From positions 352,001 through 416,000 of the forward strand of contig OY970359.1 in NCBI GenBank assembly GCA_963718665.1: DNA of 64,000 bases. Reading direction: 5' to 3'. The notes under the pieces were generated by a model, which saw only the letters and a program-made list of their open reading frames with translations, ran no database searches and was not told the origin of the DNA. Position 1 is the first letter of the stretch; each line of letters opens with the position of its first letter. This stretch comes from an uncultured Phycisphaerales bacterium. GTDB lineage: Bacteria > Planctomycetota > Phycisphaerae > Sedimentisphaerales > Anaerobacaceae. The translations under genes and the position numbers were made by a program. Positions 40,224 through 48,864 of the stretch are shown piece after piece.

Positions 40224-43200
40224 TTATGCGTTTTGGCCGTGGCATTTTTTGTATTTTTTGCCTGAGCCGCAGGGACAAGGGTCATTGCGACCGACCTTGG
40301 GGCCTTCAAGCTTAATCTGCTTGACCTTTATCTCGCCCTGAGGCGCCTGCGCGGCGGCACGCTGACGCTCGGCCATAGCAAATTGCCCGACTTGGTCGTG
40401 CGCGGTCTGGCTCACCTGCCAAACGCTTCTGGCTCTTACGCCGGCTTCGAGATGAACCTTGAAAACGATATCCGTCACCCGCTCATCGATATTGGACAGC
40501 ATCTCGCTGAACATTCGGTGCCCTTCCCGCTTGTATTCGGTCTTCGGGTCCTTCTCGGCCCATGAACGCATCCAGATACTGTCCTTGAGATGGTCCATAT
40601 TATAAAGATGGTCTTTCCAGGCGGTGTCATAAACCTGGAGCAGGACGTATCTTTCAAGCTCGCTTAATTCCCTTCGCAGAAACTCCTTGCCCGCATGAAG
40701 GATTATATCTTTTCGCGTTTCAATATCCGCGAGCCGTTCGGGCGTAAACGCCGTCCCGAAGCGGTTATTGGTCCATTCGGTAATCGCCTGCGTATCAGGC
40801 AGGTGAAGCGCATCATCGATTTCCTTTGTCAATTGACCATTGCTGTAGGACTCGCTCAATTCCAGAAGCTGCCTGTGCAGCGTCTGCGGCTGGATTTGCT
40901 GTATGCCCTCGGCGGTAAACTGGGCGTTATATTTTCTGTTCGCCCAGTTCGCCAGCGATTCAAATCCATATACATTTGCCCCCTGAGGTCCATACACCAT
41001 ATTCATCGCGAACTCGACTGGATATTCGATTTCACGTCTTTTATACCTTGCCCTGATTTGCTCCGCGATAAGTCCCTCAATCTGCTCCGGCTTTAACGCT
41101 TTCAGATCATCAACGCTCAGCTTTATATCGAACTTAGTGCGAATCCATTCCACAAGCCGGCGAATCGCGAAATCAGGTTTCAACGGCTCAGCAACAGGTG
41201 AACAGTCCTTTTTCTCAATCTGCTCATGTGCCGCGGCAATCAATTGCTCTTCGAGCTGCTCAGGCGTCATCTGCTTGACCTTGTTTATGCTCAAGCTGAC
41301 GCTGAATGCGCTCATCGCCCATTTGCACAGACCCGGAATGTCCCACGTTGACTGGTCTTCGTAATCCTCGAAGTATTCGCCAATCGACAGCGATATATCG
41401 TTGCCCGCGCTTTCCTTGGCCTTGTCCTTGATGATTCGCTCAATCTCTTCGGCCGACAATTCCTCTATTTCAGATGGTTTCAATTCAACGCTGAACTGGC
41501 TCGATGCCCATTCACAGATGCACTTAACGGGATACGCCCTCTCCAGCATTACCTGACAGGTCTTGGCGGTAGTGCCACCTATCATTTCATCGATAATTTC
41601 TTTAAGACCCTCGCCTCCCAGGATTTTTCGCCTGCGGGAATAAAATATCTTGCGCTGATAATCCATCACCTCGTCGTAATCGAGCAAACTTTTTCGCGTC
41701 TCGAAGTTTCGCTCCTCGACCTTTTTCTGCGCCTTGGCGATGCCCTTGCTGATTCTTTTGTGATAAATCGGCTGCCCTTCTTCCCAGCCAATCCACGACA
41801 ACGCCTTTACCGTCCATTCCGGCGCAAACGTCCGCATCAATTCATCGTCGAAGCTGAGGAAGAACTGGCTCGATCCTTTGTCACCCTGTCTGCCGCAGCG
41901 TCCGCGAAGCTGGTTGTCGATACGCCTTGCCTCGTGGCGTTCGGTACCGAGAACGTGAAGCCCGCCTATATCAGCGACGCCCTCTCCGAGCTTGATATCC
42001 GTTCCCCGGCCTGCCATATTAGTCGCAATCGTAACGTTGCCGTGCATTTTCCCGTCACGACCCTGATGTTGAAAGCCCGCCTTCGCGACGATTTGCGCCT
42101 TGCGCTCATGCTGTTTGGCGTTAAGCACCTCGTGCTCAAGGCCGAATCTCCTGTTAAGCGCCTCCGATAACATTTCATTTTTCTCAACGCTCACCGTTCC
42201 AACCAGCACGGGTCTTCCCGAAATGCTGATATTGTTCAACTCCTCCAATATCGCGGTGAACTTTTCGGGCATCGACTTATAAATCACGTCTTCCATATCG
42301 TCCCTGATGCAGGGCTGATTGGTCGGCATAACAACGACTTCCAACCTGTAAATTTTCATAAACTCTTCGGCTTCCGTCATCGCGGTCCCCGTCATACCCG
42401 CAATCTGGCCATAGAGTTTGAAGAAATTCTGCAGCGTAATCGTGGCAAGCGTCTGGCTCTCCTCCTTGACCTGCACGGCCTCTTTCGCCTCGACCGCCTG
42501 GTGCAGACCGTCCGACCACTGCCTGCCGTGCATCAGTCGCCCCGTGAACTCATCGACGATGACGACCTTGCCTTCCATTACGACATAATCTTTTTCCTTT
42601 TCGAAAACTACATGCGCACGCAGCGACTGCTCAAGCATGTGAGGCCATTCCATATTCGAGCCGGTGAAAAACGACCCGACTCCCGCCGCCTCCTGTGCCG
42701 CGCTGATTCCCTCGTGCGTCAAATGCACTGCCTTTCGGTCTTGCTCAACCTCGTAATACTGGGTTGCGCCGCCGGTTTTGCTCTGCGCCTCTTCAAGCTC
42801 CTTTTCGAGCCGTTCTATCGTGGCCTGCGTCTTTTCGATACGACTTTTATCTTTGGACTTTTTGGCCTCGCTCAATTCGCCATAAGCATTGGCAAGGGTC
42901 TTTTCCGACGTATCAATCTGCTTTTTGACCCGGTCGTAACCACTCTGCAGCCCGATGAGTTTTCTCGCTACGTCGTCAGCCCTTTTGTATCTGCTCACGT
43001 CATCGAACGCGGGTCCCGATATAATCAAAGGTGTTCTCGCCTCATCAATCAGAATCGAGTCAACCTCGTCGATGATTCCGTACTGCAAATCTCCCTGCAC
43101 CATGTGCTCAATCGACAGCTTCATATTATCGCGCAGATAATCGAAGCCGAATTCGTTGTTGGTGCCGTAGGTAATGTCGCTTTCGTATTGGTTTTTTCTC

Positions 43201-43709
43201 TCCTCGCCTGCGGTATCCATATCCGCCTGTATCGCGCCGACGGATAATCCAAGCGCGTTATAAATAGGCCCCATCCATTCGGCGTCGCGCTTCGCGAGGT
43301 AATCATTTACGGTAACGACGTGAACGTGCCTGCCCGTCAGGTGCACAAGATACGCGGCTAACGTCGCGACCAATGTTTTACCTTCGCCGGTCGCCATTTC
43401 CGCGATTTTGCCTTCGTAGAGGACATTGCCGCCGACCAACTGCACATCGAAATGCCTCATATTGACTGTGCGTCTGGCCGCCTCACGAACAACGGCGAAC
43501 GCCTCGGGCAGCATATCTTCCGCCCTGCCGCCATTTTTGAGCTTATCCTTGAATTCGGCTGTCTTTGCCTTCAACTGCTCATCGGTCAACTGCTTAACCT
43601 GCTCTTCAAAGACGCCTGCCTCGCGGGCGACGGTCATATACGTCTTAACCAATCGCTCGCTGCGTGAGCCGAATAGCTTTACAATCCTTTTGCCGAAATT
43701 CTTTAACAT
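40224..43709 (-). CDS. secA: Protein translocase ATPase SecA, long form
   Basis: [70 protein letters not shown]. Confidence 0.98.
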
Positions 43710-44080
43710 CAGCGTTCAGCGGGTAGCGTACAGCGTTCAGGATTAAACATCCTATACAGCATCGCGCCCACTTCATCCATCAACGATTCTATATTTGCGT
43801 TTTTATCAGTATACCCCAAATCCACGGATAAAAGAAGCTGCGTTTGCAATTCAAGCAACGAGCCATAAGCGTGGCGTAAAAACTGATTATATTCGGGCTT
43901 ATGTTTCCTCCCATATCCTTCTGCTATATTAGACGGGATAGAAACAGCCGCCCTTCTCATTTCCTGAACCAGACCGTATTGCTCATTGTTCGGAAATGCT
44001 TTTGTTATTTTATAAATTTCCAGGACCAGCCGGTATCCTTTTTGCCAGACAATCAGGTCCTTAAAAGTTTTTGTTTTCAT
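43709..44080 (-). CDS. Four helix bundle protein (23S rRNA IVP / S23 / Avd-like family)
   Basis: [50 protein letters not shown] overlaps the secA ATG. Confidence 0.95.
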
Positions 44081-44093
44081 ACTTTCCATAGTT

Positions 44094-44232
44094 CTGTCCG
44101 CTGTTTACTCTTCTCTGTCCCTGTCCGCTGAACGCTGTACGCTGTTCTTTGTTTACTGTTTTTCCTGCACGCCGTCCGCTGTACGTTGTTTACTATCTTT
44201 TCTGTACGCTGAACGCTGACCGCTGTACGCTG
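44094..44232 (+). repeat. Heptamer tandem array (CTGWMCG), about 19 degenerate units
   Basis: ctgtccg ctgaacg ctgtacg ... ctgtacg ctgaacg ctgaccg ctgtacg ctg. Confidence 0.9.
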
Positions 44233-44239
44233 ATTCGGC

Positions 44240-44268
44240 AGTATCTTAAACTCCGGTTGTATTGTCAA
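44240..44268 (-). promoter_or_regulatory. sigma70-type promoter for the four-helix gene and secA
   Basis: Minus strand TTGACA-N17-GATACT. Confidence 0.65.
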
Positions 44269-44323
44269 GGATGGGGAAAGGTGTCGAGCGATTTTTCGAG
44301 GGGAACCTGTAGAAATGCTTTTT

Positions 44324-44407
44324 TCAAACCTTTAATTTTTCTAACATCACCGCGCCGAGGCCGAGAAGTAATAGCGTGGCGGGTTCAGGGCAAGATAGGG
44401 AACTCAT
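44324..44407 (-). pseudogene. Orphan PEP-CTERM sorting tail (mini-ORF)
   Basis: MSSLSCPEPATLLLLGLGAVMLEKLKV*. Confidence 0.7.
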
Positions 44408-44536
44408 CTCCTTTCAAATGCGATGGATTTTTAGAGCACGACAAAAAAGCGTATTCTTTTGACGGAACATTATCCAGGATGTAAAATAAAACAGAGAAGC
44501 AAAATAATAGAAACTTAAATCTTAAGGAGACGAACG

Positions 44537-44626
44537 ATGCTATTGATGAGCACTTTAAACTTGATACTTATAGGTGTGGGGGTCGTAGTGTTGGTTTTGG
44601 CTATTATCCTGAAAGTGAAAAGTTAA
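44537..44626 (+). CDS. 29-aa single-TM peptide
   Basis: AAGGAG RBS; MLLMSTLNLILIGVGVVVLVLAIILKVKS*. Confidence 0.55.
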   Translation: MLLMSTLNLILIGVGVVVLVLAIILKVKS

Positions 44627-44674
44627 GGTCGAGGAAAGAATCCACCATTTGACAAGCCGGAAAAAAGGCGAGAT

Positions 44675-44740
44675 TTACCGCCTTTTGGCTGCTATCACAG
44701 CACCGAGGCCGAGAAGCAAAAGCGTGACGGGATTGGGGCA
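44675..44740 (-). pseudogene. Second orphan PEP-CTERM-like tail
   Basis: CPNPVTLLLLGLGAVIAAKRR*; no in-frame start codon. Confidence 0.65.
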
Positions 44741-44749
44741 AGTATTGCT

Positions 44750-44815
44750 GTCTGGTGTCTTGGGTCTGTGGTCTTGGGTCTCAACTGAACGCTGTCCGCT
44801 GCACGCTGAACGCTA
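44750..44815 (+). repeat. Two adjacent heptamer arrays (TGGGTCT and CTGAACG types)
   Basis: gtctggtgtcttgggtctgtggtcttgggtct then ctgaacgctgtccgctgcacgctgaacgcta. Confidence 0.8.
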
Positions 44816-44816
44816 T

Positions 44817-45083
44817 TTAACGTTTATTCTCAAGCAATTCACACATTTTTTTCCTGGCATAATAACGATTAAGCCCCTGGCTGCGGCTCTTTTGAATTTT
44901 TACTGATAGGCCGCTGGTGATATGTTTTAGATAAACGCAGGTAGAGCTTTTATTTACTTTCTGGCCGCCTGAACCGCTGCTTCTAACGAACTTTTCTTCT
45001 ATATCTTTTTCGAACAAATTGCATTTCCGCATACGCTGCGCAAGCTCTTGCTTTTTCCGTTCTGTAATTCCAAAGTTAATCAT
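44817..45083 (-). CDS. Peptidyl-tRNA hydrolase / release-factor-like GGQ protein, possibly truncated
   Basis: EKFVRSSGSGGQKVNKSSTCVYLKH..RSQGLNR. Confidence 0.85.
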   Translation of the reverse strand: MINFGITERKKQELAQRMRKCNLFEKDIEEKFVRSSGSGGQKVNKSSTCVYLKHITSGLSVKIQKSRSQGLNRYYARKKMCELLENKR

Positions 45084-45270
45084 AGGTTGTCAGTTGTTTT
45101 CTGTTTTTTCTGTACGCCGAATACTATCGTAAACTATGGTTGTGTTGTCAAGGACAGGGAAAAGAGGGTATGCTAAAATGGGTAATTGAGCCGTTTTCCC
45201 GATAAACCATCCCTTCTTTTCAGCCGATATAATCTCATAGCGAGATATGGATTTCAAAAGGAGAACTGCC

Positions 45271-45711
45271 ATGCGTTTCAGATTAGCAACAACGGAGGAC
45301 CTGAAAATAATTAAATCGTGGTTGAAAGAGGAATTTGACCGTTCTGGGACAGGAAATGGCTTTTACAACAATACAAACCTGATAGAGGAGGGGCAGAAAA
45401 GAGGCGAACTTACTGTAGCAATAGACAACAAGGATAATTTACCTGTGGCCTTTTATCTCGGAAACGGATGCTCTGCTGAAATTCTTGAAGTTAGACCAGA
45501 TTATCGCGGAAAAGGTATAGGGCGTTTATTCGTGGAACACATTATTAAATGTGCGAAAAACAAGGGCTATCCTGCTATATCTGGTTTTTGTTGTCCCGAA
45601 GAATCGCTTCCTTTTTGGTTAAAGATGGGCTTTAAACGAACGGGCAATTGGGTGAAATTCAATGTATCGACGAAATCGGACGAGAATACGACATGCTGTG
45701 GTTACGGGTGA
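45271..45711 (+). CDS. GNAT family N-acetyltransferase
   Basis: EVRPDYRGKGIGR motif A, FWLKMGF; AGGAG RBS. Confidence 0.88.
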   Translation: MRFRLATTEDLKIIKSWLKEEFDRSGTGNGFYNNTNLIEEGQKRGELTVAIDNKDNLPVAFYLGNGCSAEILEVRPDYRGKGIGRLFVEHIIKCAKNKGYPAISGFCCPEESLPFWLKMGFKRTGNWVKFNVSTKSDENTTCCGYG

Positions 45712-45795
45712 ATAAAATTATTAGATGACATTTCTGTTACACCCCCACCTCTAACAGAGAAGCATGTTGGTAAACCGGCCTTAAAGGAGTGAGCA

Positions 45796-45981
45796 ATGAA
45801 AACTATCTTACACAAGTCCAAATCCTATGCCGTAGAGGCATTGCGTTTAGCCGGTAAACAGATGCTCTGCGATATTATCAAGTGGACCGTAATCATTATC
45901 ATAGCCGCTATTGTGTTTCTAATCGTGTATCACATTCTTTACGGCCCAGACCCCTCCATTGCGGCGTCCAGGTCAAGATAG
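45796..45981 (+). CDS. Small hypothetical membrane protein
   Basis: AAGGAG RBS; one TM segment. Confidence 0.55.
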   Translation: MKTILHKSKSYAVEALRLAGKQMLCDIIKWTVIIIIAAIVFLIVYHILYGPDPSIAASRSR

Positions 45982-46027
45982 GAGCCAGATGGTAAGTGAG
46001 CCAGCGTCAGCTAACTGGCCTTAAAAA

Positions 46028-46519
46028 ATGGTTAATCGTAAATACAAGCCCGGACTTCCCCGCAAGGGATGGCATAGGGTCGATGAATGGGACTTACGTG
46101 AAGATGGTTCATCACCAGATGAAACTAATTATGCCACCTGCGAAGCGTGCAACCATTACCCTGTCCGGTATGTTCACGTTTTACAACACGATAAATACCC
46201 AGACAAGATTAAAGTTGGCCGTGATTGTGCGGGAAACCTAACTGAGGATTATAAAAAACTACAGGTCAGACAAACTAACAGAGAGGCCGAAAAATTAAAG
46301 CGTTTATTGCGACGGTGGAAGACATCTCGTTTGAAAGTCGAACGTTTCCTCTTAACTGTGTTCCCAGATAAAAATAAGCAGGGCTTTTGGAAGTGGGGCT
46401 TTGTCAATCGCTATACGGGTTATACCAGAATCAGTAATCGCTCTTATCCAACGATTGATGAGACCAAACTTGAGTGCTTGAATGAATTATTTGCTAAATG
46501 GTTATCTAACATTGTTTAA
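46028..46519 (+). CDS. Hypothetical protein with a putative Zn site (CxxC..H..C)
   Basis: TCEACNHYPVRYVHVLQH..VGRDCA. Confidence 0.7.
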   Translation: MVNRKYKPGLPRKGWHRVDEWDLREDGSSPDETNYATCEACNHYPVRYVHVLQHDKYPDKIKVGRDCAGNLTEDYKKLQVRQTNREAEKLKRLLRRWKTSRLKVERFLLTVFPDKNKQGFWKWGFVNRYTGYTRISNRSYPTIDETKLECLNELFAKWLSNIV

Positions 46520-46548
46520 CACAAAGAAAAAGGTGCCAGATAAGAATT

Positions 46549-46604
46549 GATGGGCTAAAGCCCATCCTACGAACTGTCCGCTACCCGCTGAACGCTGTCC
46601 GCTG
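46549..46604. repeat. GTAG-type REP plus CTGWMCG heptamer array downstream of rnr
   Basis: Minus strand gtaggatgggctttagcccatc; plus strand ctgtccg ctacccg ctgaacg ctgtccg ctg. Confidence 0.8.
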
Positions 46605-46614
46605 AAAACTATTT

Positions 46615-48864
46615 TTATCTTCTTCTTTTGGCTTTTTTGTGTTTTCGGCGGACGGCGAATCTTCCGCCGCCGTGTTTGGCGCGTTTGCCCTTTTCTTTGG
46701 GCCTGAGCTGTGGACGGGAAGGATGAAGGCCGCCTTCGAGGATAGCTAAAACAGGCGTGACGTTTAACTGCCTTGCGGCGACATTTACGGAAACGATGCG
46801 GACTTTCATCGGCTGTCCCAGGCAAACAATCCGCCCTGAATGTCTGCCTACGATGGAGCCATGTTTGGGGTTGTATTGCCACTGGTCAGGGCCTAAATCC
46901 GCAAGCTGCACGAGGCCCTCGATACCGAGTTTACGCGACTGGACAAATATGCCGAAATTCGTCAGGCCCGTAACAACACAATCCATCTCCTCGCCCACCT
47001 TATCTGCCAGCATTTGCAGAATCAAAACCGCCTTCAATTCGCGCTCTGCGTCGTCGGCTCGCTCCTCGGTAAACGTGATGTGCCTGCCGATATCCGCCAA
47101 CTGCTGATTATCAGGCATCCAGTCAGAGCCCGCTTCGAGGTCGCCTCGCAAATAACAATCCAAGGCACGATGAACGAGCAGGTCGGCGTATCGCCTAATC
47201 GGGCTTGTGAAATGCCCATATAATTCCGAGGCGAGCGCGTAATGACCTATATGCAGAGGTGAATACTGCGCCTTTTCCATACTTCGCAAAACGACGAGGT
47301 TTATCGCAAGAGAGCTGTCGGTGCCTTTGACGGAATTAAGAAGCTGCTGCAGCGAGGCCCGGTCTGGCAAACGGGGCAAGCTCAATCCCAATGACCGGAC
47401 AAGCTCGGCAAGATTTCGCATAGTAAAGGCATCCGGCTCAGGGTGAACCCGCCTCATAACCGGGATATTATTGCGGTCCAGAACCGTCGCCACGGCCTCG
47501 TTGGCCTCGACCATAAACATCTCGATTATCGTATGCGGATAACTATTATCCGCCGGCTGGCCATCGATAACCCTGCCCGCTTCATCGAAAACAAGCTCCG
47601 TCTCAGGCAAATCGAGGTGCAGCATACCCTCTCTATCGCGGCGTTTCTCGATTATCCGCGCAAGCGTATTCATATCATTTAATAAAGGCATCACTTCGGG
47701 TTTTATATCTTTGGTGTGCCCTTTTAGGAAGCGGTCAACCTGCTGATAAGTCAATCGCTGGGTCGAACGGATAATACTGTTGCGATAATTGCGATTTACG
47801 ACGTTACCGTCATTGTCGTAAGCAATATATGCGCTTTTGACTAATCGCAATTGGTCGGGCTGCAAACTGCAAACGCCGTTGCTCAGCATCTCAGGCAGCA
47901 TCGGGATGACCCTGCCCGGAAGATATATGCTGTTGCCCCGCTCCTTGGCTTCCTTATCCAAAGGCGTTCCGGGCGGCACAAAAAACGTAACATCGGCGAT
48001 GTGAACACCCAATAGCCAGTTGCCTTTCGCGTCGCGTCCCAAACTAATCGCGTCGTCAAAATCCTTCGCGTCGAGCGGGTCAATCGTAACTATGATTTTG
48101 TTGGTTATATCGTCCCTGTCGCGTATATTTTCCGGCTTATATTCGGTCGCGGCCTTATGCGCCTGAAAAATACAGGAGTCGTTGAATTCGCCCGGAAGCT
48201 GGAACTGGTGAGCAATCGAGGCGATTTCGCTTTCGTATCTGCCCGCTTTGCCCAGCACCTCGACAATCACCCCGCGAGCGAGACGTCTTTCTGTGGGATA
48301 AGATAATATCTCGATGACCACCTTGTCCTTTTCTCTGGCGTTTTTTGCAGTAACGTCATCGACGGTTATGGGGTCAGTCGCTCCCGAACCATCCGGCTGT
48401 ACAAGCCAGCCCTCGGGCTTTCGCATCAGCGTGCCTACAAAGCGGTTGCGTCCCCGCTGAACAATCTCGATGATTCTGCCGCTGTAACGGATTTGCTCTC
48501 CCCTGGTAGATTTCTCGACGACCTTGGCGGCAACGACATCGCCCGTCATCGCCTCCATCGTATCTCCAGGCGGGATAAATAAATCGACGTGGGCCGCCGA
48601 TTCCAATGGCGTAACAAAGCCGAAGCCCCTTGGATTGGCGCGGAAGGTCCCGATGATTCGTCCCGCAAGGCCGGCAAGCCCGACTACGCTGCCGTCGCCC
48701 AGGACGACGTGGCCCGCGTGATGAAGCTCATCGAACGCTCGCTTGAACTCGGGATAATCAGCATGGTCGATACCCAACGCCCCGGCCAGCTCGCTGACCT
48801 TGACCGGCTTGTAGTCGGCGTGCTTCAGTAACTTGATGATTTTCTTCTTATATACTTCTCGCAT
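46615..48864 (-). CDS. rnr: Ribonuclease R
   Basis: GFGFV cold-shock domain, TIDPLDAKDFDDA, HFTSPIRRYADLLVHR, S1 domain, basic tail. Confidence 0.96.
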   Translation of the reverse strand: MREVYKKKIIKLLKHADYKPVKVSELAGALGIDHADYPEFKRAFDELHHAGHVVLGDGSVVGLAGLAGRIIGTFRANPRGFGFVTPLESAAHVDLFIPPGDTMEAMTGDVVAAKVVEKSTRGEQIRYSGRIIEIVQRGRNRFVGTLMRKPEGWLVQPDGSGATDPITVDDVTAKNAREKDKVVIEILSYPTERRLARGVIVEVLGKAGRYESEIASIAHQFQLPGEFNDSCIFQAHKAATEYKPENIRDRDDITNKIIVTIDPLDAKDFDDAISLGRDAKGNWLLGVHIADVTFFVPPGTPLDKEAKERGNSIYLPGRVIPMLPEMLSNGVCSLQPDQLRLVKSAYIAYDNDGNVVNRNYRNSIIRSTQRLTYQQVDRFLKGHTKDIKPEVMPLLNDMNTLARIIEKRRDREGMLHLDLPETELVFDEAGRVIDGQPADNSYPHTIIEMFMVEANEAVATVLDRNNIPVMRRVHPEPDAFTMRNLAELVRSLGLSLPRLPDRASLQQLLNSVKGTDSSLAINLVVLRSMEKAQYSPLHIGHYALASELYGHFTSPIRRYADLLVHRALDCYLRGDLEAGSDWMPDNQQLADIGRHITFTEERADDAERELKAVLILQMLADKVGEEMDCVVTGLTNFGIFVQSRKLGIEGLVQLADLGPDQWQYNPKHGSIVGRHSGRIVCLGQPMKVRIVSVNVAARQLNVTPVLAILEGGLHPSRPQLRPKEKGKRAKHGGGRFAVRRKHKKAKRRR

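Follow-up and report, generated by a model that had tools for sequence, protein, structure and literature searches.

An IVP-family gene between inverted heptamer arms in the secA leader of a Phycisphaerales bacterium, a site of several alternative inserts within one genus

Organisation of the secA locus

The window, a 64,000-nucleotide stretch of a host genome assembled as a single 2.61-Mb contig, carries an intact secA gene whose promoter and start codon are separated by a gene-bearing insert. The features of the locus are as follows.

44263..44268, minus strand: -35 box TTGACA of the host secA promoter, kept in 20/20 same-genus secA loci
44240..44245, minus strand: -10 box GATACT of the host secA promoter (promoter match)
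44202..44232, minus strand: 5' arm, YAG(CGKN-YAG)4, five YAG triplets at a 7-nt period, 31 nt
44094..44201, minus strand: leader with further, partly decayed units of the cognate heptamer and A-rich linkers
43709..44089, minus strand: four-helix-bundle / 23S rRNA-IVP family gene, 126 aa, under purifying selection
43710..43740, minus strand: 3' arm, reverse-complement form of the five-triplet array, 31 nt
40224..43709, minus strand: host secA, 1161 aa, intact; NF009538 and TIGR00963 above cut-off
44785..44815, minus strand: solo cognate array, 31 nt, directly after an RF-1-domain gene
46574..46604, minus strand: solo cognate array, 31 nt, 10 nt past the rnr stop codon

The promoter-like site TTGACA-17-GATACT at 44268-44240 (minus strand; 10/12 matches) ends 5 nt before the arm, which places the insert just below the -10 box as the first-pass annotation had it, and sigma-70 spacing puts the inferred secA transcription start at about 44233. 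The 33-nt inverted ends built of 7-nt units that were described there are confirmed: 43708-43740 and 44202-44234 are complementary at 28/33 positions (85%), and period 7 is found in both arms and in the inner array 44121-44145. The clearest array of the leader segment spans 44121-44144, and the length of this segment differs between alleles. In the window allele the 3' arm consists of the last IVP codons and runs up to the secA ATG, with which the IVP TGA shares one base.

The leader RNA is predicted to pair arm on arm in a 33-bp stem (z -4.14; 0/100 shuffles as stable) that takes in the AU of the secA start codon, in agreement with the hairpin initially proposed. The predicted stem is extended by 7 nt of the left flank that match early secA codons, but this was set aside as post hoc and absent from the pairing of other alleles. 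No Rfam model matches at E up to 1 across 43000-47000. An internal secA start, which would have spoken against the early reading, was not found either: no promoter was found on the minus strand from 43600 to 44239, and no SD-like site in the window allele. As in a 23S rRNA intervening sequence (IVS), terminal inverted repeats surround an ORF and fold, by prediction, into a stem; the site itself lies between the secA promoter and secA, not inside an rRNA gene. The insert is an IVS-like ORF cassette outside rRNA.

Further upstream, a second secA-type promoter, TTGACA-17-GATAGT (45123-45151, minus strand), followed by a heptamer remnant, drives the RF-1-domain gene (44817-45083, minus strand; 88 aa), which ends early just before a cognate array; in several relatives this gene is longer, with a basic C-terminal tail. 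Two related short segments (44340-44390 and 44700-44740, minus strand) resemble remnants of coding ends, presumably those that encode PEP-CTERM sorting signals. Many relatives have similar PEP-CTERM-like remnants ahead of the secA promoter, so this region is a gene-traffic hot spot.

The IVP protein

The sole ORF of the cassette encodes the IVP protein of 126 aa, and the four-helix family first suggested for it is borne out by profile scores of 114.6 bits against TIGR02436 (cut-off 24) and 126.9 bits against PF05635 (cut-off 33.8), while the Avd profiles stay sub-threshold (NF033474, 32.4 vs 80 bits; PF22296, 26.4 vs 40 bits). The nearest solved structure is 2GSC, with five chains (E 1e-23), and a single-sequence model of the protein has four helices at low confidence (pLDDT 54.5). 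Its closest named relatives come from Planctomycetota bins. To our knowledge, the IVP/S23p family, although widespread, has been without a function since its discovery in rRNA intervening sequences.

The cassette contains no transposase, and a search of the host genome for PF01797 transposases gave none cognate to the arms, the two weak matches elsewhere having other, non-heptamer palindromes; a search for a reverse transcriptase gave no PF00078 match in the host genome (94.6% complete). The short Y1-transposase-like genes L105 and L106 are each framed by their own GC-rich palindromes, like REP-associated transposases. In the accessible parts of the literature, homology between PF05635 and Avd is remarked upon (PMC10053308), and PF05635-type genes are merely listed (PMC5524665).

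Leader alleles of secA in related genomes

A search with the SecA N-terminus in 41 genomes gave 38 matches and 30 recovered loci, 20 of them from the genus (24 genomes; three without a match, one with a partial match but no locus) and 10 from other genera. The promoter is retained in all 20 genus loci, where the TTGACA-17-GATACT site is found with its -10 box altered in 4, and the sequence after it is variable and takes five states. Six loci are empty, with 38 nt from the -35 box to the ATG and 9 nt between the -10 box and the ATG. Four carry the IVP cassette, each with both arms, four an ORF-less hairpin of the cognate heptamer, and six nonamer hairpins of two types (5+1). An IVP gene upstream of secA is thus absent from 16/20 genus loci, as it is from all 10 loci of other genera. 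The empty alleles would leave about 3 nt of leader and are near-leaderless.

The search for an empty site in relatives is therefore answered by 6/20 genus loci, and with them the description of the insert as discrete, transposase-less and polymorphic at a near-leaderless secA promoter is upheld. The geometry expected from its deletion proved right only in part: real empty sites are near-leaderless, but their spacing is 9 nt and not 5-7. Matters differ for the proposed 2-bp AT target duplication, which must be given up. In two of the four cassette alleles a further 6 or 9 bases separate the arm from the ATG, and the arm-side flank of the cassette also precedes solo arrays. In filled alleles the leader is replaced rather than split, and some arms reach into the -10 box or the spacer, so that no target duplication can be defined; the 9 nt of the empty alleles differ from the 5 nt that flank the cassette, and the comparison of 6 empty with 4 filled alleles, whose ends differ, gave none. 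As a separate candidate, the ORF-less alleles were considered as dispersed MITE copies and rejected, only partial, single-arm matches being found in the host genome and 800 kb of the related genome G017.

The nonamer arms match those that flank GxxExxY nuclease genes, with at least three motifs in 13/17 scored genus loci. This count excludes 13/30 loci whose ORF escaped the motif pattern, and it uses, with no control, a motif list based on alleles seen beforehand. The five states require 13 changes on the secA tree. Because 139/500 shuffles need 13 or more, the states scatter on the tree like shuffled labels, with no phylogenetic signal. Two species share one nonamer insert at 75/80 identity, compared with 74/96 at their secA four-fold sites (Fisher p 0.003; pairs with L010 left out of the four-fold comparison). 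The IVP gene has dN/dS of 0.04-0.07, which indicates purifying selection, and its dS of 0.12-0.90 is about a third to a half of the secA dS (0.34-1.67) in all 6 of the same pairs. We read the insert identity and the low IVP dS as exchange of the leader by recombination, to which selection on the hairpin could contribute; selection on hairpin and SD could account for the high identity of the insert no less than recent exchange could. Within one genus, five architectures replace one another in the leader of this essential, near-leaderless gene. The locus contributes this five-state allele series at one transcription start, and the finding that GxxExxY-type nonamer hairpins use the same site.

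Cognate arms at other loci

The arms accompany the protein well beyond secA. From 61 related IVP loci, 57 with enough flank were scored, and among homologues of at least 60% identity both cognate arms are present in 25/43 and at least one in 31/43, with the reversed orientation in 0/43. Several of the 12 loci of this group without cognate arms have a one-base variant of the unit, and homologues below 60% identity have cognate arms in 0/14 cases. Other IVP clades carry other units, again inverted, with a score of 12 or more in 19/29 loci (3/32 dropped for contig ends or a frameshift), against 32/812 for swapped pairs and 0/29 for direct orientation. Inverted flanks are accordingly typical of the family, as had been anticipated, and at the level of sequence these comparisons show arms that are specific to the protein clade and fixed in orientation.

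The clade precedes 9 downstream gene clusters, secA, proB, an ilvE/pabC-type aminotransferase, aspS, rpsA and a HAD hydrolase among them, a range that gives no support to a special tie to secA. In 19/27 clade loci the 3' arm ends no more than 12 nt above the next ATG. All 3 IVP-family genes of the host genome adjoin protein genes, the two besides the secA cassette having different heptamer arms, and G017 has another IVP cassette at a gene boundary where the host genome has an unrelated array.

Several individual loci are worth recording. At L242 the cassette lies between a proA-like gene and proB, and at L241 the order is secA-type promoter block, cassette, proB, which reflects either recombination between two cassette copies or misassembly of the 3.6-kb contig. 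At L101 an IVP gene with 42-nt heptamer arms sits, by eye, apparently between two tRNA-like genes. The IVP genes L079, L082, L083, L094 and L098 have inverted arms of period 6 or 8-10 instead of 7.

Number, ends and length of the arrays

The host genome contains 138 period-7 arrays; the remaining periods in the range 4-13 yield 0-24 apiece. Arrays of the cognate unit number 40, compared with 0 in five shuffled genomes. Cognate arrays stand at a stop codon in 21/40 cases, 15 in sense and 6 in antisense orientation, where 2.6% would be expected of either. They take the form YAG(CGKN-YAG)n, where n is usually 4, giving five triplets in 31 nt. The search pattern leaves the 3' end free, and this end is exactly YAG in 33/40 arrays of the host genome, 19/21 of G017 (2.4 Mb) and 40/56 of the clade loci, and the conserved CG is absent 5' of the arrays in 40/40, 18/21 and 56/56, respectively. 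Four periods are found in 22/40, 12/21 and 34/56 arrays of these sets and five periods in 3, 0 and 2, the three sets sharing some ancestry and not being independent.

A profile from which array ends were excluded places 72/88 arrays on the same end phase, as against 13% in random-phase simulations, and counts corrected for detection are 16, 23, 44, 12, 1 and 1 for 2-7 periods. The corrected mode is four periods in 5/6 repeat families, and a sharp end phase is clear in 2-3/6. A family-blind scan of 88 distinct IVP loci recovered 57 arrays upstream and 65 downstream. Four periods were counted in 27/57 and 32/65 of these, and no sharp length class mod 7 emerged; some arms reach as many as 15 periods, far more than five triplets. 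The end phase and length mode of the arms, as measured here, are likewise contributed by this locus.

Most arrays stand without a cassette. Of the 40 host arrays, 39 do not bound a cassette in pairs or stand away from any IVP gene, the three at the secA locus excepted, and G017, with 21 arrays in 2.4 Mb, has no close IVP. When host arrays were compared with G017, 16/40 could be placed, with a strict array in 3/16; in reverse, 10 of the 21 could be placed, with 2/10. None of the empty/filled junctions of solo arrays between these two genomes gave an unambiguous target.

In-frame heptamer arrays also occur inside protein genes of the host contig (222609, 292112, 1560791, 1561290 and 51088), and at several orthologous sites of these G017 has a different repeat family or none. 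Cognate arrays in either orientation recur at the 3' ends of genes that belong to a multi-copy family, which we take to be AP2-like and whose members have a C-terminus in common (host contig 29895, 121854, 300850, 1176455, 1458460, 1629921 and 2487107). Foreign, unrelated genes come and go at array-marked gene ends (169446, 203630 and 1480652 compared with G017), one of them with its own promoter-like site, and arrays may act as cargo entry points.

Interpretation of the cassette

We hold with moderate confidence that the locus carries a selfish IVP cassette whose presumed pentamer binds its own arms, and which spreads by recombination at tolerant boundaries and by rarer insertions. This account builds on what is observed, namely presence and absence of the cassette, allele turnover, cognate arms, purifying selection and sharp arm ends. 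The cassette would consist of an IVP gene between two inverted heptamer arms of fixed size, specific to its protein clade, and would occupy the gap between the secA transcription start and the ATG because this is one of the places at which an insert leaves promoter and reading frame whole; the same leader site takes other hairpin elements in relatives. The pentamer would bind a single-stranded arm with one triplet per subunit, and the five-triplet, 31-nt mode would follow from such reading. The match of five triplets to five subunits leads us to infer an IVP ring that reads triplets, which is a prediction by analogy. Cassettes and ORF-less remnants would spread mostly by whole-leader recombination between related species, with the promoter and the secA 5' end as probable homology for the swap, and more rarely jump to new gene boundaries by a host-assisted route.

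Expression of secA in filled alleles can be pictured in a similar manner. In the window allele, ribosomes translating the IVP ORF would open the stem through the 3' arm and re-initiate at the overlapping ATG; secA would thus stay expressed through re-initiation in this allele and through an SD below the stem in the ORF-less ones. Stop and start overlap in 2/4 cassette alleles, the remaining two having their stop 46 and 84 nt above the ATG, and an SD-like motif precedes the ATG in 9/10 ORF-less hairpin alleles, 0/4 cassette alleles and 0/6 empty ones. Two cassette alleles therefore have neither overlap nor SD-like motif, which counts against the selfish-cassette account. So do the lack of a clean junction, the arrays that persist where the cognate gene is absent, the end phase that is sharp in 2-3/6 families only, the family-blind scan with no sharp length class and the arms of far more than five triplets. 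In most cases the alleles have some route round the stem, with no shared switch, and the cassette looks like a mobile passenger and not a regulator of secA.

The selfish-cassette account predicts the unit, strand, triplet number (five) and length (31 nt) of the bound site precisely enough to be tested with a small soluble protein and synthetic oligonucleotides. The secA leader offers a natural test site, at which IVP-heptamer and GxxExxY-nonamer elements replace one another, and the locus links the IVP/S23p family to the over-represented, unexplained heptamer repeats of bacteria. A bolder reading, which we put forward as speculation, makes IVP proteins the engine of transposase-free mobile elements, their pentamer reading five triplets spaced at 7 nt and writing or delivering cognate arrays; on single-stranded nucleic acid the pentamer would protect or template a 31-nt unit with defined ends. 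If true, this would account for the heptamer excess in bacterial genomes and the four-unit mode in Xanthomonas, and would make rRNA IVSs special insertions and Avd a domesticated member.

Alternative explanations

The cassette could instead be an mRNA intervening sequence, as the first-pass annotation chiefly supposed, RNase III cutting the paired arms and regenerating a near-leaderless secA message a few bases above the AUG. We regard this as unlikely, even though the predicted 33-bp stem, the RNase III gene present in the genome, the near-leaderless empty alleles and the 3' arm ends close above the next ATG all fit it. So does the IVS of Coxiella burnetii that encodes S23p, which in the accessible text of PMC4990558 combines a 28-bp stem and heptamers with cutting by RNase III. 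The public RNA runs, in which no processed form was seen, consist of contigs only, which cannot show ends and may be DNA, and X18-X20 contain 5-7% of words. One contig of run X18 joins 43713 to 44240, a 526-nt skip with 5 other letters and a net loss of 521 nt. We rejected this joint as a spliced product: its other junction letters and its exact 38-nt empty geometry, -10 box included, are those of a relative's empty DNA allele. Another X18 contig spans the IVP ORF and the secA start uncut, with a 9-nt SD-like insertion, and an opposite-strand joint in run X1 runs arm-to-arm and is uninformative. Cutting would also cost the cell its IVP message, although purifying selection acts on the protein, and the S23p located in rRNA decays, unlike the IVP here (PMC4990558, same text). 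RNase III processing is compatible with the selfish cassette, as a tolerance mechanism.

Addiction in cis seems to us decidedly improbable. Here the paired arms would hide the downstream start and IVP bound to the 5' arm would free it, so that loss of the protein would cost essential expression. The often housekeeping character of the neighbouring genes, the purifying selection on the IVP gene and the position of the SD outside the stem in 9/10 ORF-less hairpins speak for such an arrangement, as do predicted folds in which the secA start region is less open in cassette alleles (0.19-0.47 unpaired) than in 5/6 empty ones (0.52-0.94). Blocking the 5' arm in the fold, however, moves the openness of the secA start from 0.25 to 0.26, and blocking the whole leader brings it only to 0.36; the cassette is, moreover, often lost outright.

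It is similarly improbable that the arms are neutral slippage repeats at gene boundaries, with IVP an ordinary host protein among them. The 138 period-7 arrays of the host genome are of many units and mostly without a gene, and similar unexplained heptamers are described, in the accessible accounts, for Xanthomonas, Nostoc and Beggiatoaceae. Against this, the unit tracks the protein clade in a fixed orientation, the ends are phase-locked with a length peak at four periods, and the position of the gene differs between genomes; cognate, inverted, phase-locked arms largely refute neutrality. The secM-like translational-coupling switch dedicated to secA, raised at first pass for the TGA/ATG overlap, which in the window allele and in L009 goes with the lack of an SD-like motif, is hardly tenable, as the overlap occurs in 2/4 cassette alleles, IVP is missing at 16/20 genus and 10/10 other-genus loci, and the IVP clade precedes unrelated genes.

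Comparison with known systems

In the literature searched, which took in few subscription papers, we met no account of IVP genes flanked by inverted heptamer arms outside rRNA that treats them as a class. MITEs and REP/REPIN elements are short, hairpin-forming, ORF-less derivatives that sit at gene boundaries beside a rarer gene-carrying form. The selfish cassette resembles them in its ORF-less hairpins at gene boundaries beside a gene-carrying form, but it is without transposase or target duplication, and its ends are periodic rather than unique.

The heptamer repeats of Xanthomonas and Nostoc (PMC4692102) and of Beggiatoaceae (PMC4679880) are, in the accessible texts, likewise dispersed at gene ends and often in inverted pairs, one strand following stops and the other preceding starts. 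The GGGAATC arrays of Xanthomonas form inverted pairs with strand bias and a preference for four units (PMC4692102), and the heptamers of Beggiatoaceae stop shortly before start codons, with an unknown regulator proposed as their binding partner (PMC4679880). A row in the Xanthomonas supplement places an array between bccP and XCC0516, without comment in the accessible text (PMC4692102); XCC0516 is the IVP protein of structure 2GSC. The repeats differ from the arms here in that the main texts, as far as accessible, draw no link to the IVP family and propose G-quadruplexes or the binding of S1, Csp or Csr (PMC4692102, PMC4679880).

The S23p IVS of Coxiella burnetii is of the same family, and in the accessible description its ORF lies within terminal inverted repeats, which pair over about 30 bp, with tandem heptamers upstream of the ORF. 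In contrast, the secA cassette stands in an mRNA leader, is under purifying selection and is polymorphic among close species, and its processing is putative. Avd is a distant homologue, a pentameric barrel with five subunits contacting one RNA; in the accessible part of the Avd-RT-RNA structure report, all five protomers touch one RNA, with flipped-out bases between subunits (bioRxiv 2023.10.23.563531). IVP differs in scoring below the Avd cut-offs and in the lack of a reverse transcriptase match in the host genome. TRAP of Bacillus is a ring protein that reads one triplet per subunit on single-stranded RNA. The analogy that we propose lies in a ring that would read triplets in this manner; the folds are unrelated, and for IVP the proposed reading would use 5 subunits and 4-nt spacers.
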